A DNA stretch of 15,833 nt, from NCBI GenBank assembly GCA_019058295.1, contig JAHPZI010000027.1, positions 1-15,833 on the forward strand. Direction: 5' to 3'. This DNA is from Promethearchaeota archaeon. Lineage in GTDB: Archaea; Asgardarchaeota; Lokiarchaeia; Sigyniarchaeales; SOKP01. The translations under genes were made by a program, and so were the position numbers. Below are positions 1 to 13,002 of the stretch, piece after piece. Under the pieces are notes generated by a model that worked only from the letters and a program-made list of their open reading frames with translations, was not told where the DNA came from and did not search any database. How positions within the stretch are numbered: position 1 is the stretch's first letter; every line of letters begins with the position of its first letter.

Positions 1-843
1 TTCAATTTAAAACTAATATTAGAATCCAATAATTACCAAGTGATTACTGCAAAAAATGGAAAAGAAGCGATTGATGTTCTCTCAAAACTAAAGGAAAATC
101 CAGAAATCATTTTAAGTGACATTATGATGCCAGAATTGGATGGTTACGACTTTTTTAAAACTATTTCTGAGGATCCAAGATGGGGACACATTCCTTTTTT
201 GTTTCTAACGGCTAAGGCTTCCCCTAAAGATATCCGATTTGGTAAAATGCTAGGTGTAGACGATTATATCACTAAACCTTTTAAAGAACAGGATTTACTC
301 GCAGTTATATCTGGAAAAATTACTCGTAAAAAAAGAATTAATACTATAAATAAGGAAGTTGAAGAAATGCTGTTATCAGTTAGTAAGGATGGAATGCATT
401 CTATTTCAGATGAGGATAAAAGTCAGGTGATCTTATTATTAGTTTTTTGGGACGACCATTTAGGACCTACAATTAAAAATTATTTTCCTAAAGAAGAAGA
501 CCTCCCATTTTCAATCAACCAAGTTGGTCAACAGCTATTTCAGGCAACAGTGAGTATTTATGGGCATGAATTAATAAAAAAGGCCGAAGGCATGTTGCTT
601 AATATTGAAAATATTAGTAGAAACGGATATATCTTATTTGATTCGTATCCTGAGCCTTCTACTAGGTCGAAAAAAAGAGAATATATGTTAGGTGTTATTG
701 CTCCAAAAATTAGCTATTTCAATTCTTTAAAAATAAAGGAAATACTCAAAGAAGCTTCAAAACAAATAAAAACAAAAAATCAGCTTGATTTAGCAGATTA
801 TAGAGAAAAAATTTTAAATTTATTATCAACGCCATTGATATAG
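1..843 (+). CDS. Response regulator receiver (REC) domain fused to a C-terminal uDENN/longin-like domain; 5'-truncated by the window edge
   Basis: The frame is open from base 1 (FNLKLILESNNYQVITAKNG), so GTG at 40 is internal. REC motifs: ILSDIMMPELDG (phosphoacceptor Asp), FLTA, DDYITKPF. The C-terminal domain has LLVFWDDHLGPTIKNYFP and STRSKKREYMLGVI, resembling uDENN/longin motifs. The REC call is firm; the C-terminal call is moderate. Confidence 0.88.
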   Translation, partial: FNLKLILESNNYQVITAKNGKEAIDVLSKLKENPEIILSDIMMPELDGYDFFKTISEDPRWGHIPFLFLTAKASPKDIRFGKMLGVDDYITKPFKEQDLLAVISGKITRKKRINTINKEVEEMLLSVSKDGMHSISDEDKSQVILLLVFWDDHLGPTIKNYFPKEEDLPFSINQVGQQLFQATVSIYGHELIKKAEGMLLNIENISRNGYILFDSYPEPSTRSKKREYMLGVIAPKISYFNSLKIKEILKEASKQIKTKNQLDLADYREKILNLLSTPLI

Positions 844-856
844 TAAAAGTAGTATT

Positions 857-1393
857 TTACTCTGTTATCCTCTTGGAGAATATTACATATACAGATGTAT
901 TAAAAATCTGATAAAAAAAATCAGTACTATCTAATTTCTCTTTAACTTTATCTTTCAAACTATTTATTTTCTTATCAAGTGCATCATTTTTAATTAGATC
1001 AGGGTCAAACTTGTGTAAAAATACAGATAACTCGATATTGTTACCATTTTTTTCTGCTTCAGTTAAATCAATTATTTTCTCAAAATACTGCAAAGCTAAC
1101 TCGTATCTTTTTGTGTCTTGAATATCAAAAACGAAAATTAATTTATTACATCCATACATATAATCATCAAAATCGCTTAAATATTCCTTTCTAAAGGCTT
1201 CTTGACCTCCTAGGTCCCAAATACTGAAATCCGTATCCGATATATTGATAGATATTATCTTATTTCCTTTTGTAGGTTTAATTTCACAAAAGCTAGTTAA
1301 CTTCTTTGTTCCTGATAAACATTTAACTATCGATGTTTTTCCAGCATTATCGAGACCAATAAACAGAATTTTTTTAGGTGTAGATTTTGTCAT
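857..1393 (-). CDS. Small GTPase, Asgard Arf/Rag(Gtr)-like
   Basis: G1 GLDNAGKTS, G2 PTKG, G3 WDLGGQ, G4 HKFD, G5 TSVY. 178 aa, with no C-terminal Roadblock domain. Confidence 0.93.
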   Translation of the reverse strand: MTKSTPKKILFIGLDNAGKTSIVKCLSGTKKLTSFCEIKPTKGNKIISINISDTDFSIWDLGGQEAFRKEYLSDFDDYMYGCNKLIFVFDIQDTKRYELALQYFEKIIDLTEAEKNGNNIELSVFLHKFDPDLIKNDALDKKINSLKDKVKEKLDSTDFFYQIFNTSVYVIFSKRITE

Positions 1394-1422: not shown

Positions 1423-1758
1423 TTAAAATAAAGTGTCATATATATCTAATTCTGCCGCTTTTTTCAACTTCTCATTATGTAAAGTAATAACAAATGATTG
1501 TATAAATGTAAGAATTTTAAAAATATAATCGTATTTTATTCTATAATAGTTCTTATTTTCTTTTTTCTCAAAATCAATGAGTTCCATTTCAATAAGTATT
1601 TTTAAATGTTGGGAAATTGTAGATTGACTCTTATCCAATGTATCTTCAATTTCTTTTGATGTCTTTTCTCCATTTTTTAATAAGTCTAGTACTTCAAGGC
1701 GTGTTTGATCTCCTAACACCTTTAAAAAATCGGCAATTTTTTCAGTTAGTTCGCTCAT
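1423..1758 (-). CDS. ArsR/SmtB-family winged-HTH transcriptional regulator
   Basis: FLKVLGDQTRLEVLDLL ... SQSTISQHLKIL ... NYYRI. No Cys, so it is not a classical arsenite-sensing ArsR. It lies 29 bp upstream of the GTPase on the same strand. Confidence 0.92.
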   Translation of the reverse strand: MSELTEKIADFLKVLGDQTRLEVLDLLKNGEKTSKEIEDTLDKSQSTISQHLKILIEMELIDFEKKENKNYYRIKYDYIFKILTFIQSFVITLHNEKLKKAAELDIYDTLF

Positions 1759-2565: not shown

Positions 2566-3819
2566 TTATAACTTTTCCAAAATATGTACACACATGGCAG
2601 CTTCTCCAGGTCCTATATTACCTCCTCCATTCTCAGCTAATGCAATTCTTGGTTGATTAACCTGCCTTTTACCAGCTTCTCCACGTAATTGAGTCACCAA
2701 TTCATAGATTTGTGCCAAACCACTAGCTCCGATCGGATGTCCACGGGAAAGTAATCCTCCACTCGGGTTAATAGGAATTTTTCCATCAAGAGCTGTGGCT
2801 CCGCTCTCTGCAAATTCCCCGCCTTTTCCTATTGGACAGAATCCCATCTGTTCTGTCTGATGTATTTCTCCAAAAGCCGTAGCATCGTGAACTTCTGCCA
2901 CATTTATATCTTTAGGCCCAAGATCGGCCATTTTATAAGCGAATTTGGAAGCACGTGCGGCAATATCATTTTTATTCCAAGATCCAGACTGCAAAACCGA
3001 TGCTCGTACTAGGACCGCTCTTAAATTTGGATGTTGTTTTAAAAATTTTTCTGAACAAAGAATGGCAGCCGCAGCACCATCTCCGATTGGAGCGCACATC
3101 GCCCTTGTCAGAGGATAAGAAACTTCATAATCTTCCAAAACTTGCTCCACAGTCATAGGAAAAGTGTATTGAGCAAGTGGATTCAGTGTCGAATTATTGT
3201 GGTTTTTTGCGGCTACAATAGCCAATTGTCTTTGTGTTAACCCATATTTTTTCATATGCACACGGGCTCCTGCTGCATAAAGGTCCATAAACGCCGAGTG
3301 GCCCCCTTTTTTTTTTTTAACTTCAGTTCCTTGTTTTTTGGCCATCATCGCCTTTCGTTTTTCAGCCATTTTTTTTAATTGCTCGATAAGTTTACGGGTT
3401 TTTACAACATCCGTCCCTGCGAGGAATCCTTCCATTACCTTGGACCGATCCTCAAAATATAGTTTTTCAGCACCGATAGCTAAGGCACAATCATAGACTC
3501 CTGCTTTTATTGACATCCAAGCTCCTTGGAAAGCGGTACTCCCACCAGCGCAAGCATTTTCCACATTTGTTATAGGTATTTTATCAATGCCATTGGCAGT
3601 AAGTGCTACTTGCCCTCGTATACAATGCTGAAAATCTTCACTCATACCCCAACCAGAATTGGAAAACCAAGCAGCTTCGATGTCCTCTAGATTTACATCA
3701 TTTTCACAGTCCTTTAGGAGCGATTCAAGTGCTTCTCCTGTCAGATCCTTAATACTTTTTTCTAAATATTTCCCAAACTTGATCATTCCTACGCCAAATA
3801 CATACACTTTATCACTCAT
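2566..3819 (-). CDS. Thiolase, SCP2/SCP-x-type (acetyl-CoA acyltransferase family)
   Basis: VFGVGMIKFGK, NVENACAGGSTA (catalytic Cys), EVHDA, NPSGGLLSRGHPIGASG, ENGGG in place of CxGGG. ATG at 3819 (MSDKVY) is preferred over TTG at 3828. Confidence 0.93.
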   Translation of the reverse strand: MSDKVYVFGVGMIKFGKYLEKSIKDLTGEALESLLKDCENDVNLEDIEAAWFSNSGWGMSEDFQHCIRGQVALTANGIDKIPITNVENACAGGSTAFQGAWMSIKAGVYDCALAIGAEKLYFEDRSKVMEGFLAGTDVVKTRKLIEQLKKMAEKRKAMMAKKQGTEVKKKKGGHSAFMDLYAAGARVHMKKYGLTQRQLAIVAAKNHNNSTLNPLAQYTFPMTVEQVLEDYEVSYPLTRAMCAPIGDGAAAAILCSEKFLKQHPNLRAVLVRASVLQSGSWNKNDIAARASKFAYKMADLGPKDINVAEVHDATAFGEIHQTEQMGFCPIGKGGEFAESGATALDGKIPINPSGGLLSRGHPIGASGLAQIYELVTQLRGEAGKRQVNQPRIALAENGGGNIGPGEAAMCVHILEKL

Positions 3820-3881
3820 GTTATTCAACTTTTTCGATTTATCTTGATTTAATAAATGGTGATTAATACAATAATATTATT
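3818..3881. promoter_or_regulatory. Compact divergent thiolase/esterase-1 promoter region; copy 1 of a duplicated element
   Basis: Near-palindromic ATTTAATAAAT at 3847-3857, about 30 nt from both start codons. Nearly identical to 5463-5523. Confidence 0.65.
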
Positions 3882-5399
3882 ATGAAAACAGAAATTATTG
3901 AAAAAACTGATATTATTGAAATTAAATCTGGTAAGATTCAAGGTTATAAAGAAGATGAATTAGAGATATTTAAGAATATTCCATTTGCAGAACCTCCAAT
4001 TGGCGAATTAAGGTTTCTCCCCCCCGTTGCTAAGAAGCCCTGGGATGATGTGCTTGAAACAACTGAATATGGGAATGTCGCATGGCAAGGATACACACAA
4101 CTCGAGGAGTTTCTTGGTAAAGATGGCCCAGAAGATGAAGATTGTTTAAATTTAAATATATGGACCCCAGCAACTGATGATGGAAAACGTCCTGTTATGG
4201 TTTGGATACATGGTGGCGCCTTCATTACTGGGACAGGTGCTAATCCAATATATGATGGATCTGCTTTAGCTAAGCGTGGTAACATTGTAATAGTCACGAT
4301 TAACTATAGGTTAGGATCTTTTGGATACCTTAATTTTAAAGGAAAAAAGACTCTTAATGTAGGCTCTATTGACCAAATAGCCGCATTGAAATGGGTCAAT
4401 GAAAATATTTCTAAATTTGGTGGTGATCCTGATAATGTAACAATCTTTGGTGAATCTGCAGGAGGTTATTCTGTAGTTTCCTTATGCTCAATGAAAGACG
4501 CAAAAGGATTATTTCGAAGGGTTATTGGTCAGAGTGCCCCATTTATTCCACCTGAAATAGATGACAAAACTACTAAGAAGATTATGCGTAAATTAGGTTT
4601 AAGAAAAGGGACTTTTGAAGATCTGCTTGAAATTCCTCCCGAAAAAATCATTGACGCTCAAAATGCGGTATTTGAAGCGGATCCCACGAATATTATGGCA
4701 TTAAGACCTATGGTTGATGGTAATATTTGGCCTAAGCATCCATTGCAAGCTTTTAGAGATGGAGACTGTGCTGATATAGATTTTATGATTGGATCTAATA
4801 TGGATGAGTTTAAACTATTCTCTGAACAAGAAAATTTGAAAAAATTAATAGAAGATGGTGATTTGGTAAAATTATTTGTCGGATTTTTAGGAATGGCAGG
4901 AATCCCCTCAGAGAGAAGCGCTAAAATCATTGATGTCTATAAAGAAGCAAGAGAGGGAAAATTCTCAAATGAACCAACAGATCTTTTTACCGCCCTTGTA
5001 AATGATTATGCATTCCGTATATCTACAATTCGCCTTCTTGAGGCTCAGAGACCACACCAGCCTAACACATATAATTATTTATTTGATTGGAAATCTCCCG
5101 GACTAGATGGCAGATTAGGTGCATGTCATGCATTGGAGCTTCCATTTGTATTTGGAACTCTTAATTATCCAGTTCTAAAAGAATTTGTTGAAGGTGCTCC
5201 TCGTGAATTATCTGAAAAAATTATGGATGCTTGGATTGCATTTGCAAAAACTGGCAATCCCAACCATAATGGACTCCCCGAATGGCCTGCATATGATGCT
5301 GAAAAACGAGCAACAATGATCTTTGCAGAAGAATGTAGAGTTGAAAATGCACTCTTTGATAAAGAAAGAGCTGCTTGGGATGGACTATTAGAAGTCTAA
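3882..5399 (+). CDS. Type-B carboxylesterase/lipase (para-nitrobenzyl esterase-like), paralog 1
   Basis: EDCLNLNIW, WIHGGAF oxyanion hole, INYRLG, GGDPDNVTIFGESAG nucleophile, GSNMDE acid, GACHALELPFVFG His. No signal peptide. Confidence 0.95.
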   Translation: MKTEIIEKTDIIEIKSGKIQGYKEDELEIFKNIPFAEPPIGELRFLPPVAKKPWDDVLETTEYGNVAWQGYTQLEEFLGKDGPEDEDCLNLNIWTPATDDGKRPVMVWIHGGAFITGTGANPIYDGSALAKRGNIVIVTINYRLGSFGYLNFKGKKTLNVGSIDQIAALKWVNENISKFGGDPDNVTIFGESAGGYSVVSLCSMKDAKGLFRRVIGQSAPFIPPEIDDKTTKKIMRKLGLRKGTFEDLLEIPPEKIIDAQNAVFEADPTNIMALRPMVDGNIWPKHPLQAFRDGDCADIDFMIGSNMDEFKLFSEQENLKKLIEDGDLVKLFVGFLGMAGIPSERSAKIIDVYKEAREGKFSNEPTDLFTALVNDYAFRISTIRLLEAQRPHQPNTYNYLFDWKSPGLDGRLGACHALELPFVFGTLNYPVLKEFVEGAPRELSEKIMDAWIAFAKTGNPNHNGLPEWPAYDAEKRATMIFAEECRVENALFDKERAAWDGLLEV

Positions 5400-10375: not shown

Positions 10376-12229
10376 ATGATCGGAAAAAAGTTAAATTATT
10401 CAATAAAAAAAACTAAAGCATTCGGTCGAATCACTGTCAGAAAATCTGGTGGGAATGGTTATTTAAGTAATTGGATATATATACCAACTAAAATAGTTAA
10501 AAATGATTTATTTCAATATAAAAATAATGATAAAGTTCAAATTGAAATAACCAAAGATGGAAAACTCTTAATTAGTAAAGTTGATGAACTTGTTAAACTT
10601 ATTAATGAATATGGACTTAAAAATGCAACATTACCTAGTGTTATAGAAAAAAAAGCATTAGAAAATAAATCTCGGCCATTTCTCTATTATAAAGATAAAG
10701 TATTTTCTTATAAAGAGCTAAATGAAGAATCTAATCGCATTGCTCATGGAATTATTAATTTATTAGAAGAAATTGGGTTAAGAAATCCTAAAAAAACAAT
10801 AAAAAGACAAATAAAGATAGCATTAATGCTTCCTAATTGTCCCGATTTTATATTTTCCTGGATCGGGATTATAAAGTCTCGTTGTATTGCAGTCCCGATC
10901 AATCCTGCTTTAGAGGGGAATATTCTAAAAGAAATTCTTATTGAAAGTGAAAGTGAAGTAATGATATTAGATTATCAATATTTTGAAACTTTTGAAAAAA
11001 TTAAAGATGAATTACCCAGAATAAAAAAAATTTTTATTCTAAATGCACCATCGAAATTTGAATTTAATGCAAATGTTCTTAATTATAATAAAATTAACAC
11101 ATCAAACATAATAAATCCCAATTTAAAAGTTAAAGATTTTTATCAAATGGAAATACTATATACATCGGGAACAACAGGAAAACCTAAATCACTTCTCTTT
11201 AGAAATTATTATGCTCTTACAGGAATCAATGTGGGTAAAGAATTAAATAAAATTGGTCTTGACGAAAATTCAATTATTTATTGTCCTTTTCCATTATATC
11301 ACGCATTAGGACAATTACTAGGAGTTCTACCTGCACTCTTCTATAATGCATCAATAGTTATTCCAGAATCTTTTACACCTATAAAATTTTGGAAAGATGT
11401 TAATAAATATGAAATTACGGGAATTTTTTGTTTTAAAAAATTTTTACAGCAATTGATGGACCAAATACCCTCCAAAACCGATAGTAATCATTCAGTTAAA
11501 TGGGCGTTTGGATTTGGAGTTCTTGATGATATTTGGGAAAGTTTTGAAAAAAGATTTGGAATAAAAATATATACAAGTTGGACTTTAACCGAAGCAGTTG
11601 GAATAACAATAAATACAATAGGGTCAAAAGGAGGTAAAGTGGGTTCGGTCGGAAAACCAGTAAGTGGATATGAAGTTAAAGTAATTGATTTGAATGGAAA
11701 TATTTTACCACCAGGAATAGGTAATATAGGTCAAATAGTTTCGAGAAGTACTATACCAATTCCTTTAGAATATTATAAAAATAAAAATAAAAGTAAAGCT
11801 GAGAATAGTTGGTTTGAAACAGGGGATTATGGTTATAAAGATAAGGATGGTTTTTTTTATTATGTAGGAAGAGAGTCAGATATGATAACTTCTGATAAAG
11901 AAATATTCTTTGCAAGGGAAATTGAATCAATAGCAAATTCTCATCCCTATATCTTAGAATGTGCTGCATTCGAGATTCCAAATAGAAAGGGTATTAAAAT
12001 TTGTATTGTTTTAAAAAAACCAGGATTATTAACCCACAGAGAAATTTATGATTACTTAAATCAAAATCTTGCATATTTCATGGTTCCAAAATATATTGAA
12101 ATCAAGAAACATTTGCCAAAATCCACTCTAGATTTTATTAAGAAATATAAATTAAAAGAAGAATGGGAAAATAAAAATTCTTATAATAATACCTGGAATG
12201 CAGAAATAAAAGACTTTTTAAAAAAGTAA
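10376..12229 (+). CDS. AbrB/SpoVT-like N-terminal domain fused to an AMP-binding (CaiC-like acyl-CoA ligase) fold with degenerate C-terminal motifs
   Basis: N-terminus GRITVRKSGG...WIYIPTKIV...NDKVQIEITKDGKLLISKV. ANL motifs YTSGTTGKPK, PLYH, WTLTE, WFETGD, GRESDMI, AYFMVPKYI, LPKSTLDFIKK. Confidence 0.85.
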   Translation: MIGKKLNYSIKKTKAFGRITVRKSGGNGYLSNWIYIPTKIVKNDLFQYKNNDKVQIEITKDGKLLISKVDELVKLINEYGLKNATLPSVIEKKALENKSRPFLYYKDKVFSYKELNEESNRIAHGIINLLEEIGLRNPKKTIKRQIKIALMLPNCPDFIFSWIGIIKSRCIAVPINPALEGNILKEILIESESEVMILDYQYFETFEKIKDELPRIKKIFILNAPSKFEFNANVLNYNKINTSNIINPNLKVKDFYQMEILYTSGTTGKPKSLLFRNYYALTGINVGKELNKIGLDENSIIYCPFPLYHALGQLLGVLPALFYNASIVIPESFTPIKFWKDVNKYEITGIFCFKKFLQQLMDQIPSKTDSNHSVKWAFGFGVLDDIWESFEKRFGIKIYTSWTLTEAVGITINTIGSKGGKVGSVGKPVSGYEVKVIDLNGNILPPGIGNIGQIVSRSTIPIPLEYYKNKNKSKAENSWFETGDYGYKDKDGFFYYVGRESDMITSDKEIFFAREIESIANSHPYILECAAFEIPNRKGIKICIVLKKPGLLTHREIYDYLNQNLAYFMVPKYIEIKKHLPKSTLDFIKKYKLKEEWENKNSYNNTWNAEIKDFLKK

Positions 12230-12294
12230 GAAAAAATGAATAAAAAATAAGGTGAAATTTAATTAAAATTAATGTTTTTTGGAAGTTTTTTAAA

Positions 12295-13002
12295 ATGAAT
12301 ATTCTAAGCATATTAAGTATGTATAATATTAAGCTAGGATATATTGATTATATAGAATTAAGCTTATGGATAATTTTATGTGGTGTTCTAGTTTTTGGCT
12401 GCATTGCAATTTTAATGAAATATAGAAAAACTCAGATTTCCTTGTTTTCTATATATGTAATAGTTTGTATTTTTTTCTTAATTGCAACAATTCTTAGAAT
12501 TTATATGAAGTTTTTTATGGGAAAACCTATTGAGGGAAATCCTTATTATCCTCCAGATGTTTTAATCTTACTTATTTTAGTTGCGATTTTTAATAATATA
12601 TCATTGTTTTTATTGTATTTTGATTTAGAAAAAAAACAAATAAAAGAATCTCATTATGCTTTTTCTATAATGGTATGGGTATTATTGACTATTATAATCT
12701 TAGAAGCTATAACAAGAGATATATTAATTAGAATAATCTTGATAATAATGTTTATTATAGTTGTAGCAGGATTACCCTTTATGTATTTATATATTGGAAT
12801 AAAAGCAAAAGGTAATCTTAGAGCTAGAGCTCTAATGATAGGTATAGGAATAATGCTAGTTTGTTTAAGTATAGCTATGGATCAGCCTGTTGGTGAAATA
12901 GTTTTTAGTGGAGTACATGAGATAATTAGAGCTATATTTGTTCCAACAATCTATATAATTGGAATGCTCTTATTAATATATGGTTTAGGAAAAGCACAAT
13001 AA
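12295..13002 (+). CDS. Uncharacterised 7TM membrane protein
   Basis: Seven hydrophobic segments with basic loops MKYRKTQ and IKAKGNLRARA in the same positions as in 9492-10223. The exact start is uncertain (M1 or M9). Confidence 0.78.
   Translation: MNILSILSMYNIKLGYIDYIELSLWIILCGVLVFGCIAILMKYRKTQISLFSIYVIVCIFFLIATILRIYMKFFMGKPIEGNPYYPPDVLILLILVAIFNNISLFLLYFDLEKKQIKESHYAFSIMVWVLLTIIILEAITRDILIRIILIIMFIIVVAGLPFMYLYIGIKAKGNLRARALMIGIGIMLVCLSIAMDQPVGEIVFSGVHEIIRAIFVPTIYIIGMLLLIYGLGKAQ

Follow-up and report, generated by a model that had tools for sequence, protein, structure and literature searches.

The gene at the start of the window (the 15,833-nt stretch of Promethearchaeota DNA analyzed in this study) encodes a response regulator in which a receiver (REC) domain is joined to a longin domain of the FLCN/NPRL2/C9orf72 type. 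In Asgard archaea this REC-longin gene is linked to genes encoding a small Rag/Arf-like GTPase and a membrane histidine kinase. We predict, with moderate confidence, that the protein is a phosphorylation-controlled longin GTPase-activating protein (GAP) for the GTPase of its operon. The prediction builds on observed domain identities, fold, motif conservation, gene linkage, and gene fusions; binding, phosphotransfer, and GAP activity are inferred and were not measured.

The REC-longin gene occupies positions 1-843 on the plus strand, where frame 1 is open for 280 amino acids followed by a stop codon. The window begins exactly at the contig start (G000:C27:1), which cuts the 5' end of the gene, so that about 13 codons of the N-terminus are missing, among them those of the acidic pair in strand 1. 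These codons lie at the end of contig G000:C23, which matches window positions 1-55 exactly and in frame and contributes ..NPLILVVEDNEDILFNLK. The full protein is thus about 293 amino acids long; the predicted protein P0001, 100% identical to the open reading frame of the window, is a 288-residue call from an internal start. In an independent 7,070-bp assembly (L081) the genes for the histidine kinase, REC-longin, GTPase (minus strand), ArsR (minus), and AsnC (plus) follow one another without interruption. Given this order and the C23 overlap, the REC-longin gene is intact in the genome. The receiver domain, described as intact in the first-pass annotation, is therefore complete in the genome, but inside the window it lacks the N-terminal codons.

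In the product, a long linker helix connects the REC domain to a 145-residue domain without a Pfam match. The REC domain (positions 4-309, plus strand) is matched by Response_reg (PF00072) over residues 2-103 with 74.7 bits against a cut-off of 30.2 (E 8.3e-21). It has all features expected of the family, namely the acidic pair in VVEDNED (sequence coming from C23), the phospho-acceptor Asp in SDIMMP (nt 115-132), the Thr/Ser position, here Thr in FLTA (nt 202-213), and the Lys in TKPF (nt 271-282), all on the plus strand. Across 47 family members there is no variation at the Asp, the Lys-Pro, or the acidic residues. In the full-length AF2 model, helix 5 of the REC domain is extended by the linker helix (P0001 residues 104-135, positions 286-381, plus strand), the terminus of which has low pLDDT. 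A search for an upstream histidine kinase, suggested by the first-pass annotation, found one directly 5' of the REC-longin gene in both C23 and L081. This 774-residue protein has the architecture MASE3-PAS-PAS-HisKA-HATPase_c, and its gene stops about 60 nt before the REC-longin gene. Where a locus has enough upstream sequence, a histidine kinase gene nearly always comes before the REC-longin gene, and two proteins (P0089 and P0101) are single-chain fusions of a histidine kinase, REC, and longin.

No Pfam family matches the C-terminal 150 residues of the product. With no HTH, GGDEF, or kinase family matched there in Pfam, an output of these kinds is rejected, in agreement with the initial reading. 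That reading had proposed a longin-like domain instead, and the structural models bear it out. The AF2 model of the domain (positions 409-840, plus strand; pLDDT 87.2, pTM 0.84) has the b-b-a-b-b-b-a-a topology, and its top VIA-align matches are all longin domains. The best of them is the Lokiarchaeota longin 8yqg (Z 14.1, with 132 residues aligned at an rmsd of 2.7 A), and Lst4 (Z 12.3), C9orf72 (11.4), a chain of the FLCN-FNIP2 complex (11.3), and a GATOR1 chain (11.3) also match. The longins of DENND1B-Rab35, Mon1-Ccz1, TRAPP, and Fuzzy-Inturned are further structural matches, with Z of 8-10.5. The best Foldseek matches are chains of the GATOR1 and FLCN complexes, and Atlas TM scores reach 0.72-0.77 against uDENN clusters of the C9orf72, SMCR8, and FLCN types. 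Judging from these models, the output domain adopts a longin fold, and the closest class comprises FLCN/FNIP, NPRL2/3, C9orf72/SMCR8, and DENN.

At the sequence level the relationship is hardly visible. When the Folliculin (PF11704) and NPR2 (PF06218) models were run over the whole genome, the REC-longin gene of the window remained unmatched. The only sequence links to known GAP longins are weak Folliculin matches in 4 of 90 relatives (best E 0.0015) and a match of the whole-family profile to PDB sequences, which retrieved C9orf72 alone at a sub-significant E of 0.78. A profile of the 23 most divergent family members gave only noise against PDB sequences. The REC-longin protein ends after the longin domain, and neither a C-terminal DENN domain nor an NPRL2-specific domain is present. 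Nor was a second longin gene found in the cluster that could supply the heterodimeric partner typical of GAP-type longins.

The first hairpin of the longin domain, between strands 1 and 2, carries WDDHLGP (nt 448-468, plus strand), which confirms the G-P motif of longin/uDENN modules noted there originally. In the family this WD[DE]xxGP motif is conserved at W in 85, at G in 86, and at P in 87 of 90 members, and in an HMM alignment its spacing equals that of WDNILGP in C9orf72. A later motif, TRSKKREYMLGVI (nt 661-699, plus strand), includes a conserved Arg in the loop between strands 4 and 5 (positions 664-666, plus strand; window residue 222, P0001 R230), which is a candidate arginine finger. 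This Arg occurs in all of 31 close members and in 71/90 of the wider longin family; together with WD[DE]xxGP it makes up the most conserved positions of the family. According to PMC12290439, the combination of a GP motif and an Arg finger is specific to GAP longins and occurs in some Asgard longins, whereas non-GAP longins (adaptins, TRAPP subunits, and DENND proteins, for example) lack the GP motif and the neighboring Arg. The Arf GAP activity of C9orf72-SMCR8 requires W33/D34 of C9orf72 and R147 of SMCR8 (PMC8213707).

The neighboring gene (positions 857-1393, minus strand) encodes a minimal GTPase of 178 residues, matched by Gtr1_RagA (PF04670; E 2.2e-23, 83.4 bits against a cut-off of 22) and Arf (PF00025; E 6.2e-22, 78.3 bits against 22.3). 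Since it is on the minus strand, the stop codons of the two genes are separated by 13 bp (844-856). The small, convergent Arf/Rag-like GTPase reported earlier is thus real. Its G-motifs, invariant in 37 orthologues, are the P-loop GLDNAGKTS (1331-1357), switch I PTKG (1265-1276), switch II DLGGQ (1202-1216), G4 HKFD (1004-1015), and G5 NTSV (890-901), all on the minus strand; H127, K128, D130, and T166 are also invariant. The protein meets the Arf criteria by its GLDNAGKTS P-loop and WDLGGQ switch II and the Rag/Gtr criteria by its HKFD G4 and NTSV G5. Its best eukaryotic matches among PDB sequences are RagC/RagD over the whole G domain, followed by Arf6/Arf1/Arl3. The C-terminal roadblock dimerization domain is absent, as the chain ends just past G5, and so are the N-terminal amphipathic helix and myristoylated Gly2 of Arf, only seven residues (MTKSTPK, without Gly2) preceding strand 1. 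The catalytic Gln of DxxGQ is retained and the relevant P-loop position in GLDNAGKT has no Arg, which makes it plausible that an Arg is supplied in trans. An ArsR-family HTH regulator gene (1423-1758, minus strand; HTH_5, E 1.6e-15) has the same direction as the GTPase gene and lies directly upstream of it in canonical loci. It is adjoined divergently in most loci by an Lrp/AsnC-family regulator gene, which in the window is at 1997-2497 on the plus strand (HTH_24 and HTH_AsnC-type). Both regulator genes belong to the conserved cluster.

The pairing of the REC-longin and GTPase genes is conserved across Asgard genomes. A GTPase was considered linked if it belonged to the same subfamily (about 182 residues), scored at least 150 bits, and lay within 3.5 kb, and Asgard loci with at least 3.5 kb of upstream sequence were considered informative. 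A linked GTPase was found in 42 of the 52 informative loci, and 38 of these 42 have the order ArsR, GTPase, histidine kinase, REC-longin; of 59 assemblies, 45 contain one or more linked loci. Among 42 GTPase-profile matches in the genome only three fall in this subfamily, and no member of it was found in 575 kb of more distant flanks. These two counts rule out chance adjacency in a GTPase-rich genome, and the pairing is not accidental. In the rearranged loci (the window, L012, L013, L063, and L071) the GTPase gene stays beside the REC-longin gene and not beside the histidine kinase gene. The earlier caution that adjacency of convergent genes proves nothing by itself referred to the layout of the window; this layout is a derived, rearranged form of a cluster that is usually co-directional. 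About 20% of the 52 informative loci lack a subfamily GTPase, and several loci without one (L067, L075, and L019) have a different small GTPase next door. The Heimdallarchaeota locus shows no GTPase, though only 1.8 kb of upstream sequence is present there. Within the longin family, direct GTPase-longin fusions occur (P0083 and P0189), with which we count a 274-member Promethearchaeota Arf/Ras cluster matched at TM 0.77. A protein of 131-145 residues encoded after a paralogous GTPase (contig C1, L003, and L008) had no significant similarity to the longin profile (hhalign probability 0.2).

The complex was predicted from two longin copies and the GTPase with GTP and Mg, alongside three controls. 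It scored 0.74, and the best of the three controls scored 0.00, which supports binding at the level of a model, as the multimer prediction proposed by the first-pass annotation was meant to examine. Among 80 solved complexes 58 attain this mark, as do 2 of 110 mismatched pairs; these counts are only approximate here, because the prediction relied on our own alignments and on riding ligands. At least 90% of contacts are shared between the runs, with partner pLDDT of at least 80. The predicted interface joins longin residues 21-28 (WDDHLGPT), 48-63, and 93-94 (the conserved Arg) to GTPase residues 15-16, 39-45, and 64-67. In it, the WDxxGP loop is placed on the P-loop and switch II, and the Arg is predicted to contact residues 16 (P-loop) and 40 (switch I); the Arg and the GP hairpin touch the same GTPase residues in this model; no residue-level superposition on FLCN R164, SMCR8 R147, or NPRL2 R78 was made. 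Confident contacts come from only one longin copy, which leaves a dimeric pocket unsupported. Similar longin-GTPase complexes have been solved (7mge, 8dhb, and 7t3b), and the prediction may therefore pass because the model has memorized them.

We suggest that the MASE3-PAS-PAS histidine kinase in the membrane would phosphorylate the REC Asp, and that the signal would travel via the long helical linker, probably through REC-driven dimerization, and thereby alter the engagement of the longin domain with the cluster-encoded GTPase. The most likely action would be that of a GAP, although the direction of the effect is inferred, as is any downstream output. Based on the motifs and the predicted complex, the longin would use its WDxxGP hairpin and helix 1 to dock on the P-loop and both switches, and the Arg at window residue 222 would serve as an arginine finger beside the catalytic Gln64 of the GTPase itself. 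A REC-switched longin acting on the neighboring GTPase, as originally hypothesized, is thus favored by the fold, the kinase, the linkage, and the predicted complex, though no biochemical activity has been shown. The genome encodes three paralogous GTPases, namely the copy in the window and those at C1:79231-79788 and C21:147282-147824, so the adjacent one may not be the true client.

Linkage, fusions, and predicted binding would fit equally well if the longin bound the operon GTPase as a GEF or as a nucleotide-state-specific platform or effector (compare TRAPP, Mon1-Ccz1, DENN, and Ragulator/MglB), with REC phosphorylation controlling activation or localization of the GTPase. GEF or platform modules are the commoner role of longin domains (TRAPP, Mon1-Ccz1, and DENN are examples), and the DENND1B-Rab35, Mon1-Ccz1, TRAPP, and Fuzzy-Inturned longins are among the structural matches listed above. 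Most longin-GTPase regulators are GEFs (PMC12290439). On the other hand, the GP motif and Arg, missing from non-GAP longins according to the same paper, are the best conserved residues here, the model with GTP brings the Arg to the P-loop and switch I, and the eukaryotic structures matched most strongly are longins of GAP complexes. We accordingly consider a GEF or effector role less likely than the GAP role, and regard it as a serious but rather unlikely alternative.

Information could also flow in reverse, the GTP-bound GTPase binding the longin or the kinase and modulating phosphotransfer or REC dephosphorylation, with ArsR and AsnC providing the output. The canonical position of the GTPase gene after arsR and before the kinase gene, in a cluster where an AsnC regulator is always a neighbor, is compatible with this, as is the reinterpretation of the Myxococcus REC protein RomR with RomX as an effector of MglA-GTP and not a GEF (PMC13408092). 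We nevertheless find it improbable, since the longin domain is C-terminal to REC, the usual place of response-regulator output domains, a pure sensor would have no evident use for the conserved Arg and WD-GP motifs, and the GTPase tracks the REC-longin gene and not the kinase gene in rearranged loci. It is slightly more improbable still that the genes are merely co-regulated neighbors and that the longin has a function unrelated to GTPases, such as attachment to a membrane or to a SNARE-like or other protein partner. Some longins (SNARE longins and sigma adaptins) indeed do not regulate GTPases, and about one-fifth of informative loci, as well as the Heimdallarchaeota locus with its short upstream sequence, show no subfamily GTPase. 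But the linkage over zero background, the direct fusions in the same domain family, the complex prediction that passes where its controls do not, and the different small GTPases adjacent in L067, L075, and L019 all argue to the contrary.

The known eukaryotic longin GAP complexes, whose catalytic core is built from longins of this class, act on RagC/D (FLCN-FNIP), RagA/B (GATOR1 NPRL2-NPRL3), and Arf (C9orf72-SMCR8). The phosphorylation-controlled longin GAP proposed here shares with them the fold (Z 10-11.4), the WD and GP in the first hairpin, a conserved Arg that may lie spatially near them, and, putatively, a Rag/Arf-like client, and its predicted docking on the P-loop and both switches resembles the ARF1 complex of C9orf72-SMCR8 (PMC8213707). 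Unlike them, REC-longin has neither a DENN domain nor a separate partner subunit; WD, GP, and Arg reside on one chain, whereas they are divided between subunits in C9orf72-SMCR8. Its longin is fused to REC and, by inference, controlled by a histidine kinase, its GTPase has neither the Rag roadblock domain nor the Arf N-terminal helix, and, unlike FLCN and NPRL2, it is not recognized by the corresponding Pfam models. The Lokiarchaeota Roadblock-Longin protein 8yqg is likewise of Asgard origin and has the longin fold, but it is only 11% identical and its longin is fused to roadblock, not to REC. The Myxococcus MglA/MglB/RomR-RomX circuit also combines a prokaryotic small GTPase, a roadblock/longin-superfamily regulator, and a REC protein. 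There, REC and the roadblock GAP belong to two distinct proteins, and MglB is not known to supply an arginine finger, while the Asgard protein unites REC and longin with a conserved Arg in one chain; the families differ.

NPRL2-like longins fused to two-component domains in Asgard archaea were already reported by Liu et al. (preprint 10.1101/2020.10.19.343400), so the REC-longin fusion itself is not new. That work also places most ESP genes outside conserved neighborhoods. Asgard FLCN/SMCR8-type longins with GP and Arg motifs were described in PMC12290439, which covers 15 Asgard longins and explicitly leaves open whether their partners are ArfR or Rag/Gtr GTPases. The REC-longin of the window is of the same kind as these families, belonging to or beside them. 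In the text available, neither paper describes a GTPase partner or a conserved operon for such longins, and the GTPase operon was not found in the searchable literature.

As a REC-longin fusion in a conserved cluster with a sensor kinase and a Rag/Arf-like GTPase, the locus has the look of a prokaryotic counterpart, switched by phosphorylation, to the longin GTPase-activating complexes of eukaryotes. Together with its 40-odd syntenic relatives, it names a candidate client for the Asgard longins with GP and Arg motifs, the minimal Rag/Arf-like GTPase, and a candidate upstream input, the MASE3 histidine kinase acting via REC. Both the GTPase and REC-longin are small and soluble, so the GAP question is directly testable. 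If the prediction is true, arginine-finger longin GAP chemistry would predate eukaryotes and would once have been wired to a prokaryotic phosphorelay, which bears on the origin of Rag/TOR-type nutrient signaling. It is possible, although we hold this only tentatively, that the cluster is a complete prokaryotic switch in which the membrane sensor kinase would govern the nucleotide state of a Rag-like GTPase via a phosphorylation-gated single-chain longin GAP; if so, it would be a present-day relative of the system from which the GATOR1/FLCN-Rag axis of nutrient signaling descends, dating from a stage at which a two-component system, and not TOR, still drove that axis.

The gene at 1–843 (+) is open in frame 1 up to a stop codon at 841–843. 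Its product begins with a canonical receiver domain of about 100 residues (Pfam Response_reg, E 8.3e-21), and no Pfam family matched the last ~150 residues. Both strings quoted in the first-pass annotation are present (WDDHLGP at nt 448–468 and TRSKKREYMLGVI at nt 661–699), as is the GTPase gene on the opposite strand (857–1393, 178 aa), with 13 bp between the two stop codons. The receiver domain had been taken to be intact, which is true of the genome but not of the window, where the start of contig C27 truncates its gene. Contig C23 of the same assembly ends in 55 nt (locus L002, G000:C23:76711-76765) that are identical to window 1–55 and extend the reading frame upstream to ..NPLILVVEDNEDIL. 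Further, L081, an independently assembled 7-kb contig, runs across the junction unbroken, with the histidine kinase, REC-longin, GTPase (−), ArsR (−), and AsnC (+) genes in this order. Thus the gene is intact, and C23 and C27 should be joined in this metagenome-assembled genome (79% complete).

About 55 close homologs of ~295 aa with the same architecture were found in Promethearchaeota (Lokiarchaeia) and a few other Asgard lineages. An exhaustive search yielded 159 clusters at 50% identity; the domain occurs in 150 of 400 genomes of the phylum, mainly in the window's own family (118/134) and one other (19/22). The longin-like fold suspected from the sequence was recovered in a confident model (pLDDT 87.2, pTM 0.84, 90-sequence alignment) with the longin topology strand-strand-helix-strand-strand-strand-helix-helix. 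The top Foldseek matches in PDB are chains of GATOR1, the FLCN-FNIP2 complex, a Lokiarchaeota Roadblock-Longin protein, DENND10, DENND1B, the yeast SEA complex, and Lst4. In VIA-align, the best match is the Lokiarchaeota longin 8yqg (Z 14.1, rmsd 2.7 Å, 132 aligned), followed by Lst4 (12.3), C9orf72 (11.4), and chains of FLCN-FNIP2 and GATOR1 (11.3 each), with the generic longins of TRAPP, VAMP7, Sec22, and sedlin ranking next (Z 9–10.5). The ESM Atlas shape search returned, at TM 0.72–0.77, an archaeal cluster partly annotated as Folliculin, a 274-member Promethearchaeota GTPase-fusion cluster, and eukaryotic C9orf72, SMCR8, and FLCN/SMCR8-type uDENN clusters. The evidence for longin kinship is far weaker in sequence than in structure. 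The only full-length match of the family profile among PDB sequences is the C9orf72 longin (E 0.78), in an alignment that pairs WDxxLGP with WDNILGP residue for residue; Pfam Folliculin weakly matches 4 of 90 family members, and neither it nor the NPR2 model detects the window's gene.

Conservation in the family is highest at the W, G, and P of the first-hairpin motif WD[DE]xxGP (W in 85, G in 86, and P in 87 of 90 members) and at an arginine in the strand4-strand5 loop (31/31 closest members, 71/90 overall). According to PMC12290439, a GP motif at exactly the same place, spatially adjoining an arginine finger, is common to C9orf72, SMCR8, FLCN, and NPRL2 and recurs with the arginine in some Asgard longins, whereas FNIP2, NPRL3, and non-GAP longins lack it. 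In SMCR8 the arginine finger is R147, and Arf GAP activity requires W33/D34 of C9orf72 (PMC8213707). All three motifs, WD, GP, and Arg, are united in a single chain in the window's domain. Elsewhere the family is fused to a Ras-like GTPase (P0083), an Arf-like GTPase (P0189), an RsbRD_N sensor domain (P0062), and, in P0089 and P0101, whole hybrid kinases; the four of these included in the alignment, which left out P0189, all retain the motifs.

The neighboring GTPase matches both Gtr1/RagA (E 2.2e-23) and Arf (E 6.2e-22) in Pfam. Its Arf-like P-loop GLDNAGKTS and WDLGGQ are combined with Rag-like G4 (HKFD) and G5 (NTSV), and 37 orthologs show no variation in any G motif or in the switch II glutamine. 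RagC and RagD are the best named eukaryotic matches in PDB sequences (whole G domain, E ~1e-19), with Arf6, Arf1, and Arl3 just behind; unlike Rag, the protein has no roadblock domain, and unlike Arf, no N-terminal helix.

The pairing of the two genes, first noticed in the window alone, is conserved across Asgard genomes. We considered 66 longin-encoding loci from species-representative genomes, all Asgard or unclassified archaea, counting a GTPase of ~182 aa as a subfamily member at ≥150 bits to the ortholog profile. Such a gene lies ≤3.5 kb from the longin gene in 42 of 52 informative loci (those with ≥3.5 kb upstream; related genomes among them do not count independently), and none was found farther out, in 575 kb of flanking sequence. 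By genome, 45 of 59 assemblies have a linked locus, and nine of the other 14 simply lack upstream sequence. The one-strand order GTPase>HK>REC-longin holds in 38 of the 42 linked loci, in most cases with an ArsR gene and a divergent AsnC/Lrp gene ahead of it. The upstream kinase anticipated for the window was located on C23, where a 774-aa MASE3-PAS-PAS-HisKA-HATPase_c protein precedes the REC-longin gene, and L081 has a kinase gene at this place, too. The window and its close relatives L012 and L013 carry a rearranged cluster, with the ArsR-GTPase pair inverted downstream of REC-longin and AsnC still adjoining ArsR. In the reshuffled loci (the window, L063, L071) the GTPase remains beside REC-longin, not beside the kinase. 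Loci L019, L067, and L075 have no subfamily GTPase, yet another small GTPase is next door.

In L075 and L067 this other GTPase gene is directly downstream of REC-longin: in L075 (10466-11032) it follows on the same strand at 22 bp, and L067 has two (11132-12856), one of 329 aa. REC-longin is tandemly duplicated in L063, L071, and L073; the duplicates of L063 and L071 are not separated from the GTPase by a kinase gene. The window's cluster is flanked by large open reading frames at 2566–3828 (−, 420 aa) and 3882–5399 (+, 505 aa), by eye thiolase-like and carboxylesterase-like, respectively.

The window's genome contains only three subfamily GTPases, and the window copy is separated from the GTPases of canonical operons by a long branch. 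A second AsnC<, ArsR>, GTPase> module (L078, G000:C21:145500-153500, genes at C21:145966-147824) encodes a paralog (166 bits) and continues with an M28 peptidase gene, not with HK and REC-longin. Next to the third paralog (C1:79231-79788, 253 bits; L079, G000:C1:76000-83000), downstream and co-directional, is a gene for a 131-aa protein without Pfam match, homologous to a 145-aa protein after the GTPase of locus L003 (26% identity, E 7e-13); locus L008 has a 142-aa ORF at the equivalent position, with no sequence comparison made. The 131-aa protein may be a dedicated small partner; proteins of this type showed no significant similarity to the longin profile. Finally, a 376-aa ORF with a weak longin-profile match (C18:90732-91862, E 6.6e-4) has, 3.5 kb away, a gene for a Rag-like GTPase of 311 aa (C18:86214-87149; region G000:C18:86214-91862).

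An association of the two products, as the first-pass annotation had envisaged, was also favored by complex prediction. A prediction with two longin copies, GTPase, GTP, and Mg scored 0.74, against 0.00 for the best of three controls; solved complexes reach this mark in 58 of 80 cases and mismatched pairs in 2 of 110, a benchmark that is only rough here because we supplied our own alignments and let ligands ride along. Contacts agree to ≥90% between runs, with partner pLDDT ≥80. The confident contacts all come from one longin copy and join its residues 21–28 (WDDHLGPT), helix 1 (48–63), and 93–94 (Arg) to the GTPase P-loop (15–16), switch I (39–45), and switch II (64–67, including the catalytic Gln). 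The predicted docking matches the described placing of ARF1 on the longins of C9orf72-SMCR8 (PMC8213707). The score may reflect memory, because like complexes are already solved; the prediction shows likeness, and binding is only inferred.

Most likely, though without activity data, the MASE3 kinase would phosphorylate the receiver (an inferred phosphotransfer), the long linker helix would couple this to the longin domain, probably via dimerization, and that domain would act on the operon GTPase as an arginine-finger GAP. The direction of this action is inferred, and the domain could instead be a GEF, platform, or effector for the GTPase; it carries the GP and Arg motifs described for GAP longins. 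Signal flow could also be reversed, the GTPase modulating the two-component system, and the observed linkage could reflect mere co-regulation of neighboring genes; the predicted contacts and the GTPase fusions speak against this last possibility. Phosphorelay control of the GTPase through the longin domain remains the best supported reading, with its output likewise inferred; the analysis itself establishes the domains, the fold, the motifs, the gene linkage, and the fusions.

Liu et al. (10.1101/2020.10.19.343400) already report NPRL2-like longins fused to two-component domains in Asgard, so the REC-longin fusion itself was known; PMC12290439 describes Asgard longins with the GP and Arg motifs and leaves the partner GTPase open. 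According to Tran et al., the GTPase genes of strain MK-D1 do not as a rule share operons with genes for roadblock or longin proteins, and the ArfR preprint does not discuss gene neighborhoods. No description of the ArsR-GTPase-HK-REC-longin cluster was found in the literature text searched, which excluded figures and supplements. Liu et al. also propose that Asgard growth regulation centers on two-component systems. To this known kind of longin regulator, the present locus adds a specific candidate GTPase as client and a phosphorelay as input, both client and input being inferred.
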